Of a stretch of DNA of 64,000 nucleotides, positions 6,236 to 63,037 are shown piece by piece (the stretch's first letter is position 1; each line of letters starts with the position of its first letter). The notes below the pieces were generated by a model that saw only the letters and a program-made list of their open reading frames with translations, made no database searches and was not told the origin of the DNA. The position numbers were made by a program, and so were the translations under genes. Origin of the DNA: Sedimentisphaerales bacterium (GTDB taxonomy: Bacteria; Planctomycetota; Phycisphaerae; Sedimentisphaerales; Anaerobacaceae); NCBI GenBank assembly GCA_030611315.1, contig JAUWPZ010000001.1:8640-72639 (forward strand), given 5' to 3'.

Positions 6236-6426
6236 TGGCTTAGAGCCTATCCTGAAACCGGAATCTATTGCGGCCGGCTGCAAAGCACGATGAAAAGCGT
6301 TGTCGGCCAAAAAATCGCCGCTGGAGATTTGTTTTTACAGGGCATTTATGTGGGCCGGCATTTTGCGACTTGACGCAAAATGGGAGCCCTGTTAGATTGT
6401 ACGCCTGGATTCTAAGGAGTCAAAAA

Positions 6427-8427
6427 TTGGGACAAACACTCGTCTATAAGATACTTGCCGAACACACGGTTGACGGCAAAATAGCCGCCGGCGAGCAGAT
6501 TGGCATCAGAATCGACCAGACGCTCACGCAGGATGCCACCGGTACAACCGCGTTTTTGCTGTTCGAATCGATGGGGGGGGGCAGGGTCAAGACCGATTTG
6601 TCGGTCAGCTACGTGGACCACAATATGGCCGGGTTCGGGCCGGAGAACCACAACGACCATTTGTACCTTCAAACAATCGCCGCCAAATCCGGAGTTTATC
6701 ACTCGCGGGCGGGCAACGGTATCTGTCACCAGGTCCACTTAGAGCGGTTCGGCAGGCCCGGGGCCACACTATTAGGCAGCGACTCGCATACCCCGACCGG
6801 CGGCGGAATCGGTATGCTGGCGATTGGGGCCGGCGGACTGGATGTGGCAGCAGCCATGGCAGGCGGACCTTTCTACCTGAGCTGTCCGAAGGTCCTCGGA
6901 GTAAAACTTACCGGCCGATTGAACGACTGGGTGGCGGCCAAAGATGTTATCCTGACATTGCTCGGCCAGCTCTCGACAAAAGGCAACGTGGGATGGGTGG
7001 TCGAATACTTCGGCGAAGGTATCGAAACTCTGTCCGTGCCCCAGCGGGCGACAATAACGAATATGGGAGCGGAATTGGGCGTAACAACAAGCATCTTCGC
7101 CAGCGACGAACAAACCAGAAAATTCCTCGCCGCCCAGAAACGAGTTCAGGACTATCAGCCCCTGGCAGCCGATGCGGATGCCGAATACGACCGCCTCATC
7201 GAGATAAACCTGGCCGAGCTTGAGCCGATGGCGGCCTGTCCATCTTCGCCGGACAACGTCAAAACCGTCAGCGAAATTGCCGGAACCGGAACAGGGCAGG
7301 TCGTAATAGGAAGCTGCACCAATTCGAGCTTTGCCGACCTGATGATGGCGGCAAGGACATTAAAGGGCAGAAGTATAAACAATATGGTCGAATTTGCGGT
7401 CGCTCCCGGCAGCAGAGAGGTCCTGAATATGTTGGCGGAAAACGGGGCCTTGGCGGATATGATTTCAGCCGGCGCCAGAATCCTCGAATCGGGCTGCGGG
7501 CCTTGTATCGGCCAGGGCTTTTCGCCGGCGGATGAGGTAGTAAGCCTTCGCACGTTTAACAGGAATTTTCCCGGACGAAGCGGCACAACCGGCGATAAGG
7601 TTTATCTGGTCAGTCCGGAGACGGCGGTCGCTTCGGCCCTGACCGGCAAAATTACCGACCCGCGCGATTTGCCGGAATTGTTTGGTGCCGAATACCCAGG
7701 AATTGGGCTGCCGGACGAATTCGCCGTCGATGACAGTATGATAGAGAAGCCTTTAAGCGAGAAAGAAGCGGCAAAAGCAAGGGTTCTGCGCGGGCCCACA
7801 ATTGTCGTGCCTCAGACGCCGCCGCCATTGCCTGAGAAACTGGCGGCCAAGGTGCTGGTCAAATGCGGCGACAAGATAACCACCGACCATATTATGCCGG
7901 CGGGCACTTTCCTGAAACTGCGCTCAAACGTGCCCGAATACGCAAAAGTGGTCTTCAATTGTTTCAATGAAAAGGGGCGCCCGACGTTTGCCGAGCGGGC
8001 CCTCGAATTAAAACAAAAAGCCATAGCCGGCATCATCGTAGCAGGTGAAAGCTACGGCCAGGGCTCCTCAAGAGAGCACGCCGCACTTTGCCCGATGTAC
8101 CTGGGTATTCGGGCGGTGATTGCGAAAAGCATCGAGAGAATCCACAAAGCCAACTTGATTAACTTCTGCATTGTGCCGCTGACATTCGCCGAGGCGGCCG
8201 ACTACGACAAAATCGAACCAGACGACGAACTTTTAATCGACGACGTGCCCGAAGCGATAAAGAGCAGTAACGAGGTAACAATCGTCCGGCGGGACGGCTC
8301 GTTCGAATTTACGGGCAAGCTGGAGCTTTCCGACAGGGACAGGGAAATTTTACTCTCAGCCGGCCTTTTGAATTATACGCGAACAAAGGGGCAAAGGGAC
8401 AAAGGGGCAAAGGGGCAAAGGGATTGA
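6427..8427 (+). CDS. Aconitate hydratase (~666 aa) with a repeat-encoded C-terminal tail
   Basis: Aconitase motifs are present (GSDSHT, IGSCTNSS, CGPCIGQG, swivel-domain GSSREHAA). The likely start is TTG 6427, 7 nt after AAGGAG. The last ~13 aa (KGQRDKGAKGQRD) are encoded by octamer repeats. Confidence 0.85.
   Translation: MGQTLVYKILAEHTVDGKIAAGEQIGIRIDQTLTQDATGTTAFLLFESMGGGRVKTDLSVSYVDHNMAGFGPENHNDHLYLQTIAAKSGVYHSRAGNGICHQVHLERFGRPGATLLGSDSHTPTGGGIGMLAIGAGGLDVAAAMAGGPFYLSCPKVLGVKLTGRLNDWVAAKDVILTLLGQLSTKGNVGWVVEYFGEGIETLSVPQRATITNMGAELGVTTSIFASDEQTRKFLAAQKRVQDYQPLAADADAEYDRLIEINLAELEPMAACPSSPDNVKTVSEIAGTGTGQVVIGSCTNSSFADLMMAARTLKGRSINNMVEFAVAPGSREVLNMLAENGALADMISAGARILESGCGPCIGQGFSPADEVVSLRTFNRNFPGRSGTTGDKVYLVSPETAVASALTGKITDPRDLPELFGAEYPGIGLPDEFAVDDSMIEKPLSEKEAAKARVLRGPTIVVPQTPPPLPEKLAAKVLVKCGDKITTDHIMPAGTFLKLRSNVPEYAKVVFNCFNEKGRPTFAERALELKQKAIAGIIVAGESYGQGSSREHAALCPMYLGIRAVIAKSIERIHKANLINFCIVPLTFAEAADYDKIEPDDELLIDDVPEAIKSSNEVTIVRRDGSFEFTGKLELSDRDREILLSAGLLNYTRTKGQRDKGAKGQRD
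8384..8423 (+). repeat. Five tandem octamers CAAAGGGR
   Basis: The sequence CAAAGGGG CAAAGGGA CAAAGGGG CAAAGGGG CAAAGGGA forms the aconitase 3' end and abuts the four-helix-bundle gene start. Confidence 0.9.
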
Positions 8428-8798
8428 CGATAAAAACATACAAAAATCTGCTTGTTTGGCAGAAATCAATGAATTTGGTTACAGAAATATACAAGCTGTC
8501 AAAATCGTTTCCTGCAGATGAGATGTATGGATTGACCTGCCAAATCAGACGAAGCGCCATCTCCATTCCAAGCAATATAGCAGAAGGTTCCGGCAGGAAA
8601 TCAACTGCCGACTATATCCGCTTTCTATATATCGCGACTGGTTCACTCTATGAATTACAAACTCAAATAGAAATTGCTTTGAAGCTGGGGTATTTGAAGA
8701 AAACCGACTTTGATAAATTGTACGAATCGAGTAGAGAAATTGAGCGAATGCTCAGCAGCTTGACGAGAAAACTAAATGATGCTGCGCGGGCAGAGTAA
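8424..8798 (+). CDS. Four-helix-bundle protein (23S rRNA intervening-sequence protein / Avd-like family)
   Basis: The N-terminal YKNLLVWQKSMNL, the IPSNIAEGSGRKS motif and the ~124-aa size fit the TIGR02436/PF05635 family as I recall it. The TTG start overlaps the aconitase TGA (GATTGACG). Confidence 0.8.
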   Translation: MTIKTYKNLLVWQKSMNLVTEIYKLSKSFPADEMYGLTCQIRRSAISIPSNIAEGSGRKSTADYIRFLYIATGSLYELQTQIEIALKLGYLKKTDFDKLYESSREIERMLSSLTRKLNDAARAE

Positions 8799-10507: not shown

Positions 10508-10557
10508 CGATTGACGATTGACGATTTCAAGTCGAAAATCTTGAATCGCAAATACGA
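10508..10557 (+). repeat. AATCG-word repeat block (CGATTGA x2.5 plus GTCGAAAATC / AATCGCAAAT)
   Basis: CGATTGACGATTGACGATTTCAAGTCGAAAATCTTGAATCGCAAATACGAAT lies immediately upstream of the hisD RBS. It uses the same vocabulary as the alaS insertion. Confidence 0.7.
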
Positions 10558-10572
10558 ATAAAGGAGCCAACA

Positions 10573-11907
10573 GTGCCCCACGAACTCGACAGAATTCTTA
10601 TCCCCGAATCCCAGTCGGGCTTTGATAAACAATTCAAGGACATCCGTCGGATACTTCTCCACAAAGCAATGTTTGGCGGTTTTGATAAAGAGAGTGAGAA
10701 CAATCGTGATAAGGTCCTCGAGATTATTCGAGATGTTGACGAACAAAGGTATAAAGCTGTAAGAAAATATACAAAAGAATACGATGGGGTTGACATATCG
10801 CGCAAGGAATTCCGTGTGAGCAAAGAAGCTTTGGAGAAAGCTCACAAAGAAATAGACAAAGACCTTTTAGTATCGATTCGAAAAGCGATTAAGAACATAC
10901 GGGAATACCAAACCAAGATTTTTATCGGGAAAAAATCGGACCTGTCGGGAGAAACCGGCATCAGATATACCCCTATCAGAAGAGTTGGTATATGCGTCCC
11001 GGGCGCTTCGGCTCCGCTGCCTTCCACCGTAATAATGACAGCGGTACCTGCTCAAGTGGCAGGCGTGAAGGAAATTGTCGTGATTTCTCCGCCGAGATAT
11101 AACAAGGACATTCATCCGGTAACTTTGGCAGCCTGTTACGAACTGAAAATCGATAAGGTCTATCGGGCAGGCGGTGTGCAGGGAGTAGCAGCTTTGGTTA
11201 CTATCGCCAAGGTAAATAAAATTGTCGGGCCAGGAAATCAATGGGTACAGACGGCCAAGCTGATGGTTTTTGGATATGTCGGCATTGATTCAGTGGCCGG
11301 GCCAAGCGAAGTATTGATAATCGCGAACGATAAGGCCAACCCGGCATGGGTGGCGGCTGATATGCTCAGCCAGGCAGAGCACGCACCGGGCAGTGCGATT
11401 GTTTTTACAGATTCAAACGAAGTCGGCAAGAAAATCCTGGATGAGCTTAAAAAGCAAGCAGGACAATTAAGCAGGGCAAAAGAAACAATTGAATGCCTGA
11501 AAAAATATAGCGCTATCATTGTGTTTGATTCTTTTGAACATATAATTTCATGGGCAAACAATCTTGCGCCGGAACATTTAGAGATTCAATGCGGAGACAA
11601 AAGCAGAGAAATCGCCGACAAAATCAAGAACGCCGGTGCTATATTTATCGGTGATTACAGCCCGGTTGCAGTTGGCGACTATTGGGCCGGGCCAAGTCAT
11701 ACTTTGCCAACGGGAGGAGGGGCGAAATTCTCCAGCGCGCTTACCAGCAATGACTTTATCAAGTCCATAAGCATAATCGAGTACGATAAGGAGAAGCTGG
11801 CCCAAAGCGCCGAGGATATTATTCGGTTGGCGGAAGCTGAAGGTCTCGACGCCCACGCGAAAAGCGTGAAGATAAGACAGCAGAACCAGGCCCGCTCAAA
11901 AAGCTAA
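10573..11907 (+). CDS. hisD: Histidinol dehydrogenase
   Basis: The 444-aa protein has SQAEHAPGS and GDYWAGPSHTLPT motifs. It starts at a GTG after AAGGAG. Confidence 0.9.
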   Translation: MPHELDRILIPESQSGFDKQFKDIRRILLHKAMFGGFDKESENNRDKVLEIIRDVDEQRYKAVRKYTKEYDGVDISRKEFRVSKEALEKAHKEIDKDLLVSIRKAIKNIREYQTKIFIGKKSDLSGETGIRYTPIRRVGICVPGASAPLPSTVIMTAVPAQVAGVKEIVVISPPRYNKDIHPVTLAACYELKIDKVYRAGGVQGVAALVTIAKVNKIVGPGNQWVQTAKLMVFGYVGIDSVAGPSEVLIIANDKANPAWVAADMLSQAEHAPGSAIVFTDSNEVGKKILDELKKQAGQLSRAKETIECLKKYSAIIVFDSFEHIISWANNLAPEHLEIQCGDKSREIADKIKNAGAIFIGDYSPVAVGDYWAGPSHTLPTGGGAKFSSALTSNDFIKSISIIEYDKEKLAQSAEDIIRLAEAEGLDAHAKSVKIRQQNQARSKS

Positions 11908-13933: not shown

Positions 13934-16693
13934 TCAACAAGCCGCCAGTTTTTCTTTCAAGATTTGTGCGGCTTTTGCCAGGGCATCGTCGATTTTTTCC
14001 GGTTTCTTTCCGCCGGCCTGGGCCATTTGCGCTCGCCCGCCGCCCCCGCCGTCAATGAGCGGCGCAACTGCCTTGACCACGTCGCTGGCCTTTATGCCCC
14101 TTTCCACCACGTCGTTGGTCATGCCCACCAAAAGCACGGCCTTGTCGCCGTCAGCAAAGCCCAAAACGATAGCGGCGGATTTCGCCTTCTTCTTGAGCAT
14201 ATCGACAGCCTCACGGGCCTGCTCGATGGAAGTCGGCGAAAGCGGGCCAACGATGATATGAGTTTCGCCGACCTTTTCGCAATCGGCAAGAAGCTGCTTT
14301 GCCTCTGCCATAACGTCAGAGCCGGACTGGCGCGAGGCCGACTTGAGCTCCTTAGAGAGCCTTTTATTTTCCTTCATCAGCCGGCCAATCCTCTCAACCA
14401 GCCCCTCGGAGGGGACCTTCAGCATCAATGAAAGCTCATCGATAATCACGCCGGTCTTTTCGAGATGTTCGGTAAGAGCCGAGCCGGTCAGAGCGGTAAT
14501 TCTGCGCACGCCGGTCGAAATGCTCTCTTCTCTGATTATTTTGAAGCCGCCGATAGAACCCAGTTTATCAACATGAGTACCACCACAAAACTCCAAAGAG
14601 ATTTGCGATTTGCGATTTGCGATTTGCGATTTTAATTCGTCAATCGGCAATTGGAAATCGTCAGCCGGCAATCCGATACCCACCACTCGAACCTCGCTTC
14701 CATACTTCTCACCGAACAACGCCATCGCGCCGAGCTTCTGGGCCTCTTCCCTCGGCATAATGCAGCAGGTTACCGGCAGGTCCTCGGCGATTTTTCCCCC
14801 GACCAAACTCTCAACCTTCTTTAGCTCCTCGGCGCTCGGCGCAGCCGGATAGGTAAAGTCAAACCTCAGATAATCCGGGCCGACGAAACTGCCCTGCTGA
14901 GCCACTGATTCGCCCAGCACCTTCTGCAGCGCCCACTGGAGCAGGTGTGTGGCGGTATGGTTCTTCCTTATCGCATCCCTGTCTTTGCTAACGAACGCTT
15001 CTACCGCCTCTTCGATACCGAACGAGCCTTCGGTAACTCGGCCCCTGTGAATTACGCAGTTGGCTATCTTTGCAGCGCTCTCAACGACAAACTGCCCCTT
15101 ATCCGATTTTATCAGGCCGCAATCACCAACCTGGCCTCCAGCTTCGGCATAAAAGCAGGTTCTCTCAAGGACAAGACCGACCTCGGCGCCGCAGTCGATT
15201 CGCCCCTGCTTTTTGAAACCCTCGTCATCAATCCAGCCGAGGACCTTAGCCTCGCAGCTATCGGTATGATATTTATGCACATCTTCAGTTTCCGGCAGCT
15301 CGGTATCAGCCAATGTCGCCACAAGTGAACTGCTTTTTTGCGCCGCCCTTGCCCGCTGCCGCTGTGCTTCCATCAACTCGTCAAATTTAGCCGTATCGAC
15401 TTTCAGCCCGCGTTCGGCGGCCATGAGCTCGGTCAAGTCAAGCGGAAATCCGTACGTATCATAAAGCTGAAAGGCATCTTCGCCGTTGATGGTCTTGTTG
15501 TCGGCCTTGGCCGCTCGCCCGGCGGCGGAGGCGAATATCTCAATGCCCCTGTCGAGCGTTCTGCCGAAGCTGGCCTCCTCCGATTCGATTACAGTCGAAA
15601 CGTAGTCGGCCCTTTGTCTTATCTCGCCGAACGCATCACCCAGACAGCCAACGACCACCGGCACAAGTTTATAGAGAAACGGCTCGTGCATCCCCAGCTC
15701 CCTGCCGAACCTCGAAGCCCTACGGAGTATTCGACGAATCACATATCCCCGGCCCTCATTAGAGGGCGCCGCCCCGTCGGTTATCGCAAAGGTAAGCGAG
15801 CGAATATGGTCGGATATCACCCGAAAGGCGTTATCGGTTTTGTTGCCTAATTGCGATGTGTACTCGTGGCCGGTGATACTCCCGATAGAATCGATTATCG
15901 GCATGAATAAATCGGTATCGTAGTTGCTCGGTTTGGCCTGCGTCACGGCAACGATTCTTTCCAGGCCCGCACCGGTGTCAACATATTTGGCGCCAAGCGG
16001 CACAAGCTCGCCGTCGCCTTGACGATTGAACTCTATAAAAACAAGGTTCCACAGCTCAATGTACCTCGCACAACCACTATTGACCCGGCATACATGGCCC
16101 GCAACATCCTTCATATCACACATATCAGGCCCCAGGTCGATATGTATTTCACTGCAGGGCCCACAGGGACCAACCTGGCCCATCTCCCAGAAATTATCTT
16201 TTTTACCGAAAGCCAGAACCCTCTCGGCAGGCAGCGACGTAACTTTTGGCCATAGCGCGGCGGCCTCGCTGTCTCGAGGCAGGCCGTCGGCTTCGTCGCC
16301 CGCAAAAACACTCGCCCACAGGCGGTCCGGGTCGATACCCCAGACCTCGGTAAGCAGTTCCCACGCCCACCGGATTGCCTCGGCCTTGAAGTAATCATCG
16401 AACGACCAGTTGCCGAGCATCTCGAAAAACGTGTGGTGATAAGTGTCCTTGCCCACTTCCTCGAGGTCGTTGTGCTTGCCGCTTACCCGCAGGCATTTCT
16501 GGCTGTTGGCTACCCTGCGATGCTCCGGGGGCGCCAGACCCAGGAAAATATCCTTGAACTGATTCATTCCGGCATTGGCAAAAAGCAGCGTCTCGTCGTC
16601 GATGGGCACAATGGGCGAGCTGGGGACAAACACGTGGCCTTTGCCCTTGAAAAAATCTATAAAGTCGCTTCTGACTTGCTTTGCACTTCTCAT
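13934..16693 (-). CDS. alaS: Alanine--tRNA ligase
   Basis: The 919-aa protein has RSDFIDFF...HVFVPSSP at the N-terminus, an editing-domain HTATHLL...CGGTHV, and a C-terminal DHHA1-like GGGGGRAQMAQAGG. Confidence 0.95.
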   Translation of the reverse strand: MRSAKQVRSDFIDFFKGKGHVFVPSSPIVPIDDETLLFANAGMNQFKDIFLGLAPPEHRRVANSQKCLRVSGKHNDLEEVGKDTYHHTFFEMLGNWSFDDYFKAEAIRWAWELLTEVWGIDPDRLWASVFAGDEADGLPRDSEAAALWPKVTSLPAERVLAFGKKDNFWEMGQVGPCGPCSEIHIDLGPDMCDMKDVAGHVCRVNSGCARYIELWNLVFIEFNRQGDGELVPLGAKYVDTGAGLERIVAVTQAKPSNYDTDLFMPIIDSIGSITGHEYTSQLGNKTDNAFRVISDHIRSLTFAITDGAAPSNEGRGYVIRRILRRASRFGRELGMHEPFLYKLVPVVVGCLGDAFGEIRQRADYVSTVIESEEASFGRTLDRGIEIFASAAGRAAKADNKTINGEDAFQLYDTYGFPLDLTELMAAERGLKVDTAKFDELMEAQRQRARAAQKSSSLVATLADTELPETEDVHKYHTDSCEAKVLGWIDDEGFKKQGRIDCGAEVGLVLERTCFYAEAGGQVGDCGLIKSDKGQFVVESAAKIANCVIHRGRVTEGSFGIEEAVEAFVSKDRDAIRKNHTATHLLQWALQKVLGESVAQQGSFVGPDYLRFDFTYPAAPSAEELKKVESLVGGKIAEDLPVTCCIMPREEAQKLGAMALFGEKYGSEVRVVGIGLPADDFQLPIDELKSQIANRKSQISLEFCGGTHVDKLGSIGGFKIIREESISTGVRRITALTGSALTEHLEKTGVIIDELSLMLKVPSEGLVERIGRLMKENKRLSKELKSASRQSGSDVMAEAKQLLADCEKVGETHIIVGPLSPTSIEQAREAVDMLKKKAKSAAIVLGFADGDKAVLLVGMTNDVVERGIKASDVVKAVAPLIDGGGGGRAQMAQAGGKKPEKIDDALAKAAQILKEKLAAC
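14598..14625. repeat. Four tandem heptamers GATTTGC inside alaS
   Basis: On the coding strand the sequence reads AAATCGC x4 and is translated as KSQIANRKSQI. Confidence 0.9.
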
Positions 16694-24583: not shown

Positions 24584-24627
24584 CGTGTCTCGTGGTTCGT
24601 GGTTCGTGGTTCGATTCACGAGATACG
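24584..24627. repeat. Hairpin whose loop is (GTGGTTC)x3
   Basis: An 11-bp stem (CGTGTCTCGTG with CACGAGATACG, including one G-T pair) encloses the heptamer repeats at 24592-24612. It lies between the DUF1844 gene stop and the trpC start. Confidence 0.75.
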
Positions 24628-61005: not shown

Positions 61006-62334
61006 TCATAATTTGTTAATCGTCAGACCCGCGAATATTTTCGGATAGAAATAAGTCGATTTTTGCGGCATCCTTTCGCCGGCGTCCGTAACCTTTATAA
61101 GCTGCTGCATTTTTACCGGGTTCATAAAAAAGGCAGCCTGTTTTTGTCCCGCATCCACCTGTGCTGTCGATTCATCAATGGCGTTCGGGGTGTCTTTGAC
61201 GTATTGAAGATAGCCGCCTTCGGCCAATTTATCCTCGTCGATGCCGAGAAGCCCTTCGAGGATTAGTTTATGCAGGATAGAAACGTCGAGACTTCTCCAG
61301 GCCGAGCTCATATTCGGCACGAGAGAATCCATCGTGCGTTTGTCTTTCAGGACTGCTACATAGAAGGCGTTGTCCGGGCCGTAGAGACCGAATGCGTTTC
61401 TGTCGTTGTCGAACTCGGCCTTCATTTGTGCGAGGGCTTGCTGCCTTGCGTGCGTTTTGGTCTCTGGCGAATCGAACTGCAGCTTTGTAACCTCGAAATT
61501 TTCACTGAGGTCGGTAATTAATTTTTCGATATTGAATGTTTCGAGATTGCCGACGAGGCGGTGCGTAGCCAGGACAACGAGTCCTTCCTGGCGGGTGTTC
61601 GCAAGGGCCATCATTTGATATTGAGCCGCCGCCTTGCCGCTTTCTTTGGCGTAAGTCAGGCCCGTTGTATAGCGGTGATGGCCGTCGGCGATAATGCAGC
61701 TCTTGTCGCTCATCATTTGAACTATGGCGCCGATATCTTCCTTGGCGGTTATCGCGAAGAGCCGGTGCCTGACAGTTTCAACCTTCGATTTTCGATTTCC
61801 AATCTCCGTTTTGCAATCGATAATCGGCGTTCGTAAATCGCCAATGATTTTGTCTGCTGTCCCCTGCGGGTCTTCGTAGAGACAAAAAGGCAGGCCGAAT
61901 ATGGCGGAGGTCGCCCTGTTGAGGTTGAGCCTGTCAACTATCGGTTCATTGAGGACCTGTTCGTGGGGCCTGACGATTTGGCCGAATTCTTCGAGTTTCG
62001 CAAGGGCAATGAAGCTCGAGCGCTCAAATTCGGCCCCGCCCAATTGAAAGTTCTGGATGTAGGCGTAAATGGTCTCGGCAGGGTCCTGCTTGAGGGCGCC
62101 TTTTTCCGTCCAGTTATTGAGATACTCGGCGGCCCGGGTGTATTGATTATTGTCGCCGTTGTCGGATGGACGGGTTTTGCCTTTGATTATTCGCACGATA
62201 TTATACTCGCTCTTTTCATAGAGCTGCTGCTGCCGGGCGGTGTCGATTACATCATACGGAGGGGTGATGCAGTCGCCCACGTCGCCGACTACGGCGGCAT
62301 CGAATCTGAACGCTCTGAACGGCTTAATTTCCAT
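61006..62334 (-). CDS. DUF1015 domain protein
   Basis: It has the N-terminal IKPFRAFRF...ITPPYDVI and ADGHHRY. Confidence 0.8.
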   Translation of the reverse strand: MEIKPFRAFRFDAAVVGDVGDCITPPYDVIDTARQQQLYEKSEYNIVRIIKGKTRPSDNGDNNQYTRAAEYLNNWTEKGALKQDPAETIYAYIQNFQLGGAEFERSSFIALAKLEEFGQIVRPHEQVLNEPIVDRLNLNRATSAIFGLPFCLYEDPQGTADKIIGDLRTPIIDCKTEIGNRKSKVETVRHRLFAITAKEDIGAIVQMMSDKSCIIADGHHRYTTGLTYAKESGKAAAQYQMMALANTRQEGLVVLATHRLVGNLETFNIEKLITDLSENFEVTKLQFDSPETKTHARQQALAQMKAEFDNDRNAFGLYGPDNAFYVAVLKDKRTMDSLVPNMSSAWRSLDVSILHKLILEGLLGIDEDKLAEGGYLQYVKDTPNAIDESTAQVDAGQKQAAFFMNPVKMQQLIKVTDAGERMPQKSTYFYPKIFAGLTINKL

Positions 62335-62340
62335 TTCTCT

Positions 62341-62375
62341 CGTATTGCGTATATCGTATTGCGTATTGCGTTCTG
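62341..62375. repeat. About five tandem heptamers CGTATTG (two degenerate)
   Basis: CGTATTG CGTATAT CGTATTG CGTATTG CGTTCTG lies 6 nt upstream of the DUF1015 start codon and ~190 nt from the Y1 transposase-like gene. Confidence 0.85.
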
Positions 62376-62495: not shown

Positions 62496-63037
62496 CCCCG
62501 AAGCAGGCTTCGGGGCTAAACAGTGTTGCATATCGTTAGATTCGCGGATACCATTGGTCTTATGGGGAAGATGATTGGGTATATGGTGACGTGGACGACA
62601 TACGGGACGTGGTTGCAGGGTGATGAAAGAGGATACGTGCGGGATGGAAAAGTGCTGCCGTCAGATGCAGGACTCGAAGAGGCAAATAGAAAACTGCAAA
62701 AGTTCAGGCCTGTTCGTCTAACACCTAAGCAGAAAAGGGTCGTCGAAGAGGCTGTGCTCAAAGAGGCAGAACGAATCGGGCAGGAGATACTTGCGCTTGC
62801 GGTTTGCTCGAATCATGTTCATCTTGTGGCCGGCAAAGGGAAAGAGTCAATAGAGAATGCCGTGTCCCGGTATAAAAATGTGTCGTCCGGTGCCCTGAAA
62901 AAAACGGGATTGACAAAAAGGATATGGACGCGCGGTTTTGACAAGAGGTTCTGTTTCAGTGGTGAACAACTCGAGCAGAAAATCGAATATGTTCGTCGTC
63001 ACGACAAAATCGGTTAGCCCGCAGGCCAGCCTGCGGG
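62496..63037 (+). mobile_element. Hairpin-flanked IS200-like (HUH Y1) cassette
   Basis: The left hairpin is CCCCGAAGC-AG-GCTTCGGGG (62496-62515). The right hairpin is CCCGCAGGC-CA-GCCTGCGGG (63018-63037), immediately after the stop. Both have the same 9-2-9 architecture. Confidence 0.6.
62562..63017 (+). CDS. IS200-like / RAYT-like HUH tyrosine (Y1) transposase family protein
   Basis: It has GYMVTWTTYGTWLQGDERGYV and the HUH motif NHVHLV. The product is ~151 aa from ATG 62562. Confidence 0.65.
   Translation: MGKMIGYMVTWTTYGTWLQGDERGYVRDGKVLPSDAGLEEANRKLQKFRPVRLTPKQKRVVEEAVLKEAERIGQEILALAVCSNHVHLVAGKGKESIENAVSRYKNVSSGALKKTGLTKRIWTRGFDKRFCFSGEQLEQKIEYVRRHDKIG

Follow-up and report, generated by a model that had tools for sequence, protein, structure and literature searches.

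A translated heptanucleotide-repeat module in place of a short loop of alanyl-tRNA synthetase in Sedimentisphaerales, and its probable movement between alaS lineages

How does a tandem array of heptanucleotide repeats, a unit that is not a multiple of three, come to be translated within an essential aminoacyl-tRNA synthetase gene? The question is raised by alaS, encoding alanyl-tRNA synthetase (AlaRS), in a 64,000-nucleotide stretch (the window) of the genome of a Sedimentisphaerales bacterium of the Planctomycetota (assembly GCA_030611315.1, contig JAUWPZ010000001.1, positions 8,640 to 72,639). An earlier note on the window, made from its letters, took the array for a repeat element inserted in frame into a surface loop and likened it to the Rickettsia palindromic elements (RPE). 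We find that a discrete, heptamer-built module, the type-1 cassette, stands in place of a native turn of the protein and is translated. It is common to unrelated alaS lineages and not private to the window genome, and the class of arrays to which its repeats belong also colonises other housekeeping genes. The features at the locus are as follows.

13934..16693, minus strand: alaS, the sole alanyl-tRNA synthetase gene, 919 aa, intact (open reading frame (ORF), translation, PDB matches and Pfam).
14595..14672, minus strand: type-1 cassette, 78 nt, residues 675-700 (LPADDFQLPIDELKSQIANRKSQISL), delimited by DNA alignment with the cassette-less P0003/L031 and by a codon table of six bearers.
14633..14672, minus strand: left arm, degenerate inverted words ATTGCCG GCTGACG ATTTCCA ATTGCCG ATTGACG AATTA, read as LPADDFQLPIDEL.
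14600..14632, minus strand: right arm, exact (GATTTGC)x4.7 on the plus strand, that is (AAATCGC)x4.7 on the coding strand, read as KSQIANRKSQI.

The identity of the host gene is clear: the best PDB matches of the 919-aa ORF are AlaRS catalytic and editing domains, its precomputed Pfam domains are tRNA-synt_2c, tRNA_SAD and DHHA1, and the 3.70-Mb, 221-contig assembly holds a single alaS match, without stops. The tandem GATTTGC array described by the earlier note does lie in frame within this gene, as exact copies between VRVVGIG and EFCGGTH (...VRVVGIG-LPADDFQLPIDELKSQIANRKSQISL-EFCGGTH...). A two-unit GATTTGC seed with at most one mismatch gives three overlapping matches, against 0.06 expected in shuffled sequences, and degenerate period-7 words run on after 14632 to about 14673. 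An assembly artefact is ruled out, as a second, independent assembly (ERZ4219663), with six single-nucleotide differences in the 2760 nt of alaS, has the identical cassette, and about 20 other assemblies bear it as well.

What does the cassette replace? Of 29 AlaRS genes compared from its family and order, 28 have 13 residues between VRVVAIG and EFCGGTH, with the consensus AExxxxIxxAFSR, and archaeal AlaRS structures have two (3WQY) or four (2ZZE) residues between the two aligned strands; the earlier note had put the spacing in canonical AlaRS sequences at about 10 residues. A close comparison is with the metagenomic alaS P0003, which has 94.2% amino acid and 94% nucleotide identity to the window gene outside the loop and a 13-aa loop. 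Collinearity of the two DNAs extends to ...ATCGG on the left and resumes at GGAGTT... on the right, with 78 nt between these points in the window and 39 nt in P0003. The same junctions are found in the pairs P0004/P0029 and P0014/P0058, so that three pairs of bearers and non-bearers, with gene-wide nucleotide identities of 91-94%, tell of a replacement with identical junctions. The loop has grown from an ancestral 13 to 26 residues, a net gain of 39 nt or 13 codons. In this respect the earlier note needs correction: it described an insertion of about 66 nt, whereas the foreign segment measures 78 nt and takes the place of 39 nt instead of adding to the loop. The cassette site appears to be a beta-turn of the editing domain, beside the zinc-binding CGGTH motif, and the alignment together with the length variability of the site suggests that it is exposed at the surface. 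An AlphaFold model of the whole enzyme was poor (mean pLDDT 61, pTM 0.31) and was used only for a local hint of secondary structure.

The cassette was found in about 20 of the 120 best AlaRS matches, with the consensus LTTDDFRLPIDELKSK[VI]ENRKSKISL; the search was ranked by the queried region, which enriches bearers among these matches, and only three of the order's 401 species genomes show the cassette pattern. The bearers of the cassette belong to at least 17 alaS lineages, which together make up no clade. For every bearer there is a cassette-less relative at 78-96% amino acid identity, while identity between bearers is only 71-93%, save for two near-duplicate sequences at 99%. On an alaS gene tree of 47 tips the trait needs 14-15 state changes, and an approximately unbiased (AU) test rejects the bearers as a single clade (difference in log-likelihood 1522, p = 3e-5). 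The segment is thus no loop of the whole phylum or lineage, which by the earlier note's own account would have refuted its proposal: the loop is short in nearly all relatives and in a gene 94% identical, and the pattern is rare among the genomes of the order. Its further argument, that gain or loss of one heptamer would shift the frame of alaS and that copy number must therefore be held stable, holds logically; the identity of the array in the two independent assemblies is a weak check on it. The 26 codons are kept in 19 of the 21 listed type-1 bearers, and the remaining two have 24 and 17 codons, both in frame. A non-coding copy is under no such constraint, and the one in genome G154, described below, differs by one unit.

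Is the cassette as old as the genes that carry it? DNA identity between bearers is 82-95% in the cassette and 72-89% gene-wide. Among six bearers, codons for the same amino acid are identical at a frequency of 0.91 in the cassette and 0.60 in the rest of the gene, and the core TTG CCG ATT GAY GAA TTA AAA is invariant in all six lineages. Amino acid differences are no rarer in the cassette than elsewhere (0.25 vs 0.20). The codon comparison therefore indicates that the cassette coalesces more recently than its host genes, apparently without selection at the peptide level, and the much greater likeness of its synonymous sites, compared with those of the host genes, is our reason for considering it to have spread laterally. 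Additional synonymous similarity among bearers is confined to codons -10 to -1 on the left (0.60 vs 0.41), with none on the right side. Co-transfer of large flanks was considered and rejected: neither the nearest neighbours of the flanks nor a tree of the 100 residues on either side groups the bearers. The alaS genes of this clade are also strong recombination mosaics (L032 vs L033, L040 vs L038), in which blocks of several hundred bases at 100% identity adjoin blocks at 78-88%.

The anatomy of the cassette is that of an array-palindrome. On the coding strand, the words of the left arm are followed by AAATCGC x4.7 and then by TCTCTTT. The left-arm words are of the CGATTKN type, the inverse of the NMAATCG units of the right arm, and the loop between the arms, about 10 nt, has no ORF. 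In P0004 the arms pair (RNA -27 kcal/mol, z = -3.3; DNA z = -2.3); the hairpin is weak or intermediate in L040, L042 and L046, and in the window copy its signal is gone (RNA z = +0.2, about 0). The right arm of the window reads (AAATCGC)n and that of its relatives (AAATCGA)n, all units being altered alike, while in L040 two adjacent units have changed to AAAACCG. Such changes are concerted evolution within the array. At the conserved isoleucine of the short loop, relatives have CAA ATC G or AAA ATC, which amounts to one array unit. We rejected the idea that the cassette replaced the tip of a pre-existing hairpin, as in intervening sequences (IVS) of rRNA, since the ancestral loops are inconsistently structured (z from -2.3 to +1.4).

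The type-1 cassette is not the only heptamer-built insert at this loop. In a type-2 cassette, (E)QKTEDRGQRTENLTSDFRHLTS, a centre lies between a (CAGARGA)n arm and an inverted (ACTTCTG)n arm, and the hairpin z is -3.3 to -3.4. Five scattered lineages bear this cassette, and the DNA of one of them is 94% identical to that of a type-1 bearer; type 2 is unrelated to type 1 and is also younger than its hosts, with 0.88 vs 0.51 identical synonymous codons. P0092 has a (CTCAAAA)n insert at the AlaRS loop and P0108 a further one, while in genome G005 (AGCGGAC)3 precedes AACGCTG/TACCCTA words. One group of genes 92-94% identical (P0058, P0014 and P0038) contains three loop alleles side by side.

Copies of type 1 outside alaS are scarce. 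When 185,579 species genomes and the JGI metagenome collection were scanned, every exact match to the core but one fell in alaS, and we therefore rejected a high-copy element. The exception, in genome G154, is 71 nt long, one unit shorter than the alaS cassette with the same ends (ATTGAC...AAAATCTCTTT), and lies 8 nt past the stop codon of an unrelated gene in a convergent intergenic region, hence non-coding. Neither at the alaS junctions (...ATCGG|ATTG...CTTT|GGAG) nor at those of the G154 copy (...TATGG|ATTG...CTTT|ACAT) did we see a target-site duplication or terminal inverted repeats. The core was found in no viral contig, and a phage vector was rejected on that ground. The window genome contains no second full-length copy, only partial matches, the longest of 46 nt; modules sharing its architecture are present at C93:7228-7294 and C126:5766-5838.

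The repeats of the cassette belong to a period that is unusually frequent in this genome. At period 7 we counted 54 exact arrays of at least three copies and 87 degenerate islands; the former number 2-5 at periods 5, 6, 8 and 9, and the latter 0-13 at the other periods from 4 to 12. Period-7 arrays are about tenfold over-represented. The units are very diverse across the genome, and tandem NAAATCG units are found at 28 loci, so that related repeats do occur elsewhere, as the insertion proposed in the earlier note implied. The word vocabulary of alaS also recurs, as that note had reported, upstream of hisD, where the leader contains CGATTGACGATTGACGATTTC...GAATCGCAAAT:

10508..10557, plus strand: non-coding CGATTGA/AATCG word family in the 5' leader of hisD (10573..11907).

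According to gene predictions that are crude ORF calls, islands are enriched at the 5' ends of genes (34% vs 12% of random positions) and depleted within them. Even so, twelve islands are found well inside long ORFs, and arrays are in frame in at least ten other housekeeping proteins identified by Pfam: IleRS, MurF, MurE, MurD, MnmE, RecG, MutL, WaaA, LpxK and DnaX. The IleRS segment (23 additional residues) and two MurD segments are insertions relative to relatives in alignments. The case of MurD (C158:23966-25591) resembles that of AlaRS. It has two loops that are insertion hot spots, and the window genome, G010 (L109) and G026 (L112) carry different heptamer inserts at the same position (THNAQRTTH...PTRYEIRDTRY; ...PTQYVVRNTQY; RRKTEDRGQKTDGG...). 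MnmE of the window genome has at least four heptamer-derived segments.

Two further arrays lie in the window:

24590..24613, plus strand: intergenic heptamer array (TCGTGGT)x3.4.
62341..62371, plus strand: heptamer array (CGTATTG)x4.4 in the leader of a DUF1015 gene, adjoining an IS200-like Y1 gene (62523-63017).

The first sits in the loop of a hairpin (24584-24627) between mutually complementary flanks of heptamer words, gcgcgtattacgtg and cacgagatacgcg. The DUF1015 ORF itself (61006..62334, minus strand) contains AATCGAA x2.1 at 61784-61798, read in frame as ...GNRKSKVE..., the peptide vocabulary of the alaS cassette. Several unrelated arrays have 4.6-4.7 units (32-33 nt), among them those of alaS and of contigs C51, C93, C105, C126, C158 and C191, perhaps a modest excess over other lengths.

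Heptamer arrays are also associated with genes of the PF05635 family (23S rRNA IVS protein). The window genome has 11 PF05635 matches, whereas only one of 14 control genomes has any. Inverted heptamer arrays flank eight of nine PF05635 genes examined, each with its own unit, and the same is seen in relatives; no gene among those examined has CGATTK/AAATCG arms. One member lies in the window:

8384..8798, plus strand: PF05635 gene (23S rRNA IVS-protein-like four-helix bundle, 8424-8798), preceded by an octamer array (CAAAGGGG)x4.9.

The aconitase ORF upstream (6268-8427) overlaps the start of this gene and ends in a C-terminal tail, KGQRDKGAKGQRD, encoded by the (CAAAGGGG)x4.9 array. The syntenic copy in G154 keeps both inverted arms, the downstream arm of the window having decayed. 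The locus is a gene-bearing relative of the hairpin modules.

Four genomes allow a comparison of gene content with repeat load. G000 (the window genome), G031 (another family of the order), G154 and G016 have respectively 11, 8, 7 and 1 PF05635 copies, 5, 5, 3 and 0 Y1_Tnp genes, and 9.4, 11, 4 and 0 period-7 islands per 400 kb. These associations concern a handful of genomes and establish no mechanism. G016, a complete 2.27-Mb genome of the same family, showed no period-7 island in a 400-kb sample and has a single PF05635 gene but no Y1_Tnp gene; it might offer a naturally 'clean' lineage as a control for this class of repeats. None of the five Y1 genes of the window genome adjoins the alaS cassette, and a link to the Y1/IS200 gene of the window was rejected, its flanking hairpins being unrelated GC stems and not heptamer arms.

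Y1 sequences were also encountered within synthetase genes. A ValRS-like class I synthetase of the window genome, encoded outside the window (C140:17931-21017), includes an in-frame RayT/IS200-like Y1_Tnp domain (aa 328-400, 25.2 bits, above the cut-off) inside its catalytic-domain envelope. Some AlaRS genes of the clade, the metagenomic P0101, P0104 and P0031, have a similar insert between tRNA-synt_2c and tRNA_SAD that ends in translated repeats resembling repetitive extragenic palindromic (REP) sequences (THGQDA..., DTHGRDAHATSP x3). These look like a transposase gene living in frame inside aminoacyl-tRNA synthetase genes.

How, then, did the type-1 cassette reach so many alaS lineages? We infer a single origin, followed by movement between alaS lineages through recombination over very short patches, the cassette being carried as a tolerated passenger; we give this account a probability of roughly 60%. 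On this reading AlaRS residues 675-700 are encoded by a hairpin module with CGATTKN words in its left arm and about 4.7 NAAATCG units in its right; the module belongs to the arrays and array-palindromes that abound in the window genome and in other Sedimentisphaerales. Having arisen once, it would have moved between alaS genes independently of the rest of the gene, most probably by homologous recombination anchored in the near-invariant DNA that flanks the loop and encodes AMALFGEKYG to its left and EFCGGTH to its right. The right arm of the window lineage was homogenised from AAATCGA to AAATCGC, by slippage or by conversion within the array, which destroyed the complementarity of the hairpin. 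As the frame tolerates only length changes in multiples of 3 nt (three heptamer units), alaS copies would stay at 26 codons. The cassette is most likely a tolerated passenger and not an adapted part of the enzyme.

Several points weigh against this account. Recombination between DNAs of 72-89% identity is normally rare. The tree of the 100 residues on either side scatters the bearers as the whole-gene tree does (14 vs 15 changes), and conversion tracts would therefore have had to be extremely short in at least 14 events. For the window lineage, no donor with matching flanks was found: up to the junctions, its flanks are closest to those of its cassette-less sister. The low synonymous divergence could partly reflect constraint on the DNA instead of youth, and the structural position of the loop depends on sequence alignment to archaeal structures.

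The sharpness of the junctions, identical in at least 14 independent lineages and with almost no hitch-hiking of flanks, is what one would expect of our main rival explanation, in which copying of the module is independent of homology. A non-autonomous hairpin would be copied into new sites by a factor acting in trans, with PF05635 proteins or a Y1/RayT-type transposase as candidates, and would home repeatedly to the alaS loop, replacing the native segment with no need of flanking homology. The G154 copy, which keeps the same ends although its intergenic site is unrelated, is in keeping with this, as are the inverted arrays that bracket most PF05635 genes, the parallel between PF05635 copies, Y1_Tnp genes and period-7 islands, and the presence of different heptamer cassettes at the same AlaRS and MurD loops in different lineages. 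However, a proliferating element should not have all of its exact core matches but one in alaS; the cassette lacks target duplications and terminal inverted repeats; the gene-content correlation is that of four genomes; and no PF05635 gene with CGATTK/AAATCG arms was seen. Also counting against it, we know of no transposition chemistry that replaces a 39-nt target segment. We therefore hold a site-preferring mobile module to be a rather doubtful possibility. The same tentative standing applies to its broader form, in which heptamer-array hairpins of Sedimentisphaerales and other phyla would be one self-propagating class of DNA, with PF05635 (IVS-protein/Avd-like) cassettes as autonomous members and gene-less members copied into tolerant sites by a templated, homology-independent process. 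If this were true, the type-1 and type-2 cassettes would be 'homing' alleles of the loop, writing themselves over the native one in naive alaS genes.

Might selection, and not movement, account for the pattern? The coexistence of three loop alleles in one closely related gene group, and of at least five different cassettes at one loop beside the zinc motif of the editing site, could point to balancing or diversifying selection on loop cassettes (the 13-aa loop, type 1, type 2 and others), for instance in escape from an AlaRS binder encoded by a phage or toxin, or on a regulatory mRNA hairpin. The peptide, however, is no more conserved than recency explains, the hairpin decays freely, and the same kind of insert in many unrelated enzymes fits tolerance better than a function specific to AlaRS, so that we judge a selected allele improbable. 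It is still less probable that the 26-aa loop is ancestral and vertically inherited, with repeated loss, its similarity being kept up by purifying selection on DNA or peptide. Cassette divergence does rise roughly with host divergence, and the core is invariant. But a cassette allele cannot regenerate the short loop, and each 'loss' therefore also needs import from outside; 398 of the 401 species of the order lack the pattern; monophyly of the bearers is rejected; and the hairpin is not maintained. Frequent amino acid changes with rare synonymous ones are, moreover, the opposite of what selection on the peptide would produce. There is finally the native CAAATCG or AAAATC word at the conserved isoleucine, from which slippage could have expanded an array in place, independently in each lineage. 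All bearers share a non-repetitive left arm, both junctions and the derived ISL end, features that could not arise time and again from differing ancestral loops, and the common left arm and junctions effectively refute such an origin from a native seed, which we find scarcely credible.

Comparison with known systems helps to place the cassette. The likeness to RPE, selfish palindromic repeats that are read in frame (summarised in PMC10969869 and PMC1779305), stands up: both are short, palindrome-like repeats read in frame in tolerated loops of conserved, often essential genes, both are patchy among the orthologues of close relatives, and in both many genes are hit in one genome, with at least ten other housekeeping genes here. 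Nevertheless, the two share no sequence relationship. The cassette is made of tandem 7-nt units and measures 78 nt against about 100-150 nt for RPE; it replaces native sequence where RPE add to it; type 1 is almost confined to one gene, although the wider word family is dispersed; and its host is a free-living planctomycete, not an obligate intracellular bacterium.

Long simple sequence repeats with heptanucleotide units are known from Calothrix and Nostoc (short tandemly repeated repetitive sequences, STRR), from Xanthomonas (GGGAATC) and from Beggiatoaceae (TAACTGA) (PMC4692102, PMC4679880; Mrazek et al. 2007 as cited there). The arrays described here resemble them in the over-representation of period 7, in their number of units (about 3-6), in their mostly intergenic location or position near gene starts, and in the suspected role of slippage. 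As far as these reports describe them, however, the published repeats are intergenic or under-represented in coding sequence, while at least 12 arrays here lie deep in genes and in frame. Here, too, dozens of units coexist, arrays pair as inverted arms, and one array-palindrome behaves like an allele that moves laterally. Our literature search found no description of heptamer-repeat elements of this kind in Planctomycetota.

The ORF-bearing IVS of 23S rRNA (PF05635/S23p), for example in Coxiella (PMC4990558), have in common with the cassette a long inverted-repeat stem, replacement of a native tip, patchy lateral spread and sharp boundaries; the arms pair in type 2 and in some copies of type 1, and the same architecture surrounds eight of nine PF05635 genes here. 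The alaS cassette differs in that it has no ORF of its own (no four-helix-bundle ORF), lies in a protein-coding gene and is translated, not excised. Phase-variable contingency loci also have perfect in-frame repeats whose unit is not a multiple of three, so that a change of one unit shifts the frame. Yet alaS is essential and single-copy, no variation in copy number was seen between the two assemblies or among about 20 lineages, and the array is the remnant of an element arm and not a switch. Unlike miniature inverted-repeat transposable elements (MITE), the cassette has neither terminal inverted repeats nor a target-site duplication, and 39 nt of the target were removed. It differs from REP/RayT systems (REPtrons) in that no Y1 gene adjoins it, and the Y1 gene of the window is framed by GC hairpins.

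These results have practical consequences for annotation and phylogenomics: segments of this kind call for masking, and in this clade alaS is a recombination mosaic. Because its age can be set against that of its host genes, the cassette offers a clean case that can be dated among the heptanucleotide repeats of bacteria, which are poorly understood, and the case links these repeats to hairpin modules and to genes of PF05635 IVS proteins. More generally, a protein loop can act as a swappable cassette site, here with at least five heptamer-built alleles, and a repeat module that moves laterally and is translated can reside even in an aminoacyl-tRNA synthetase that is essential and single-copy.

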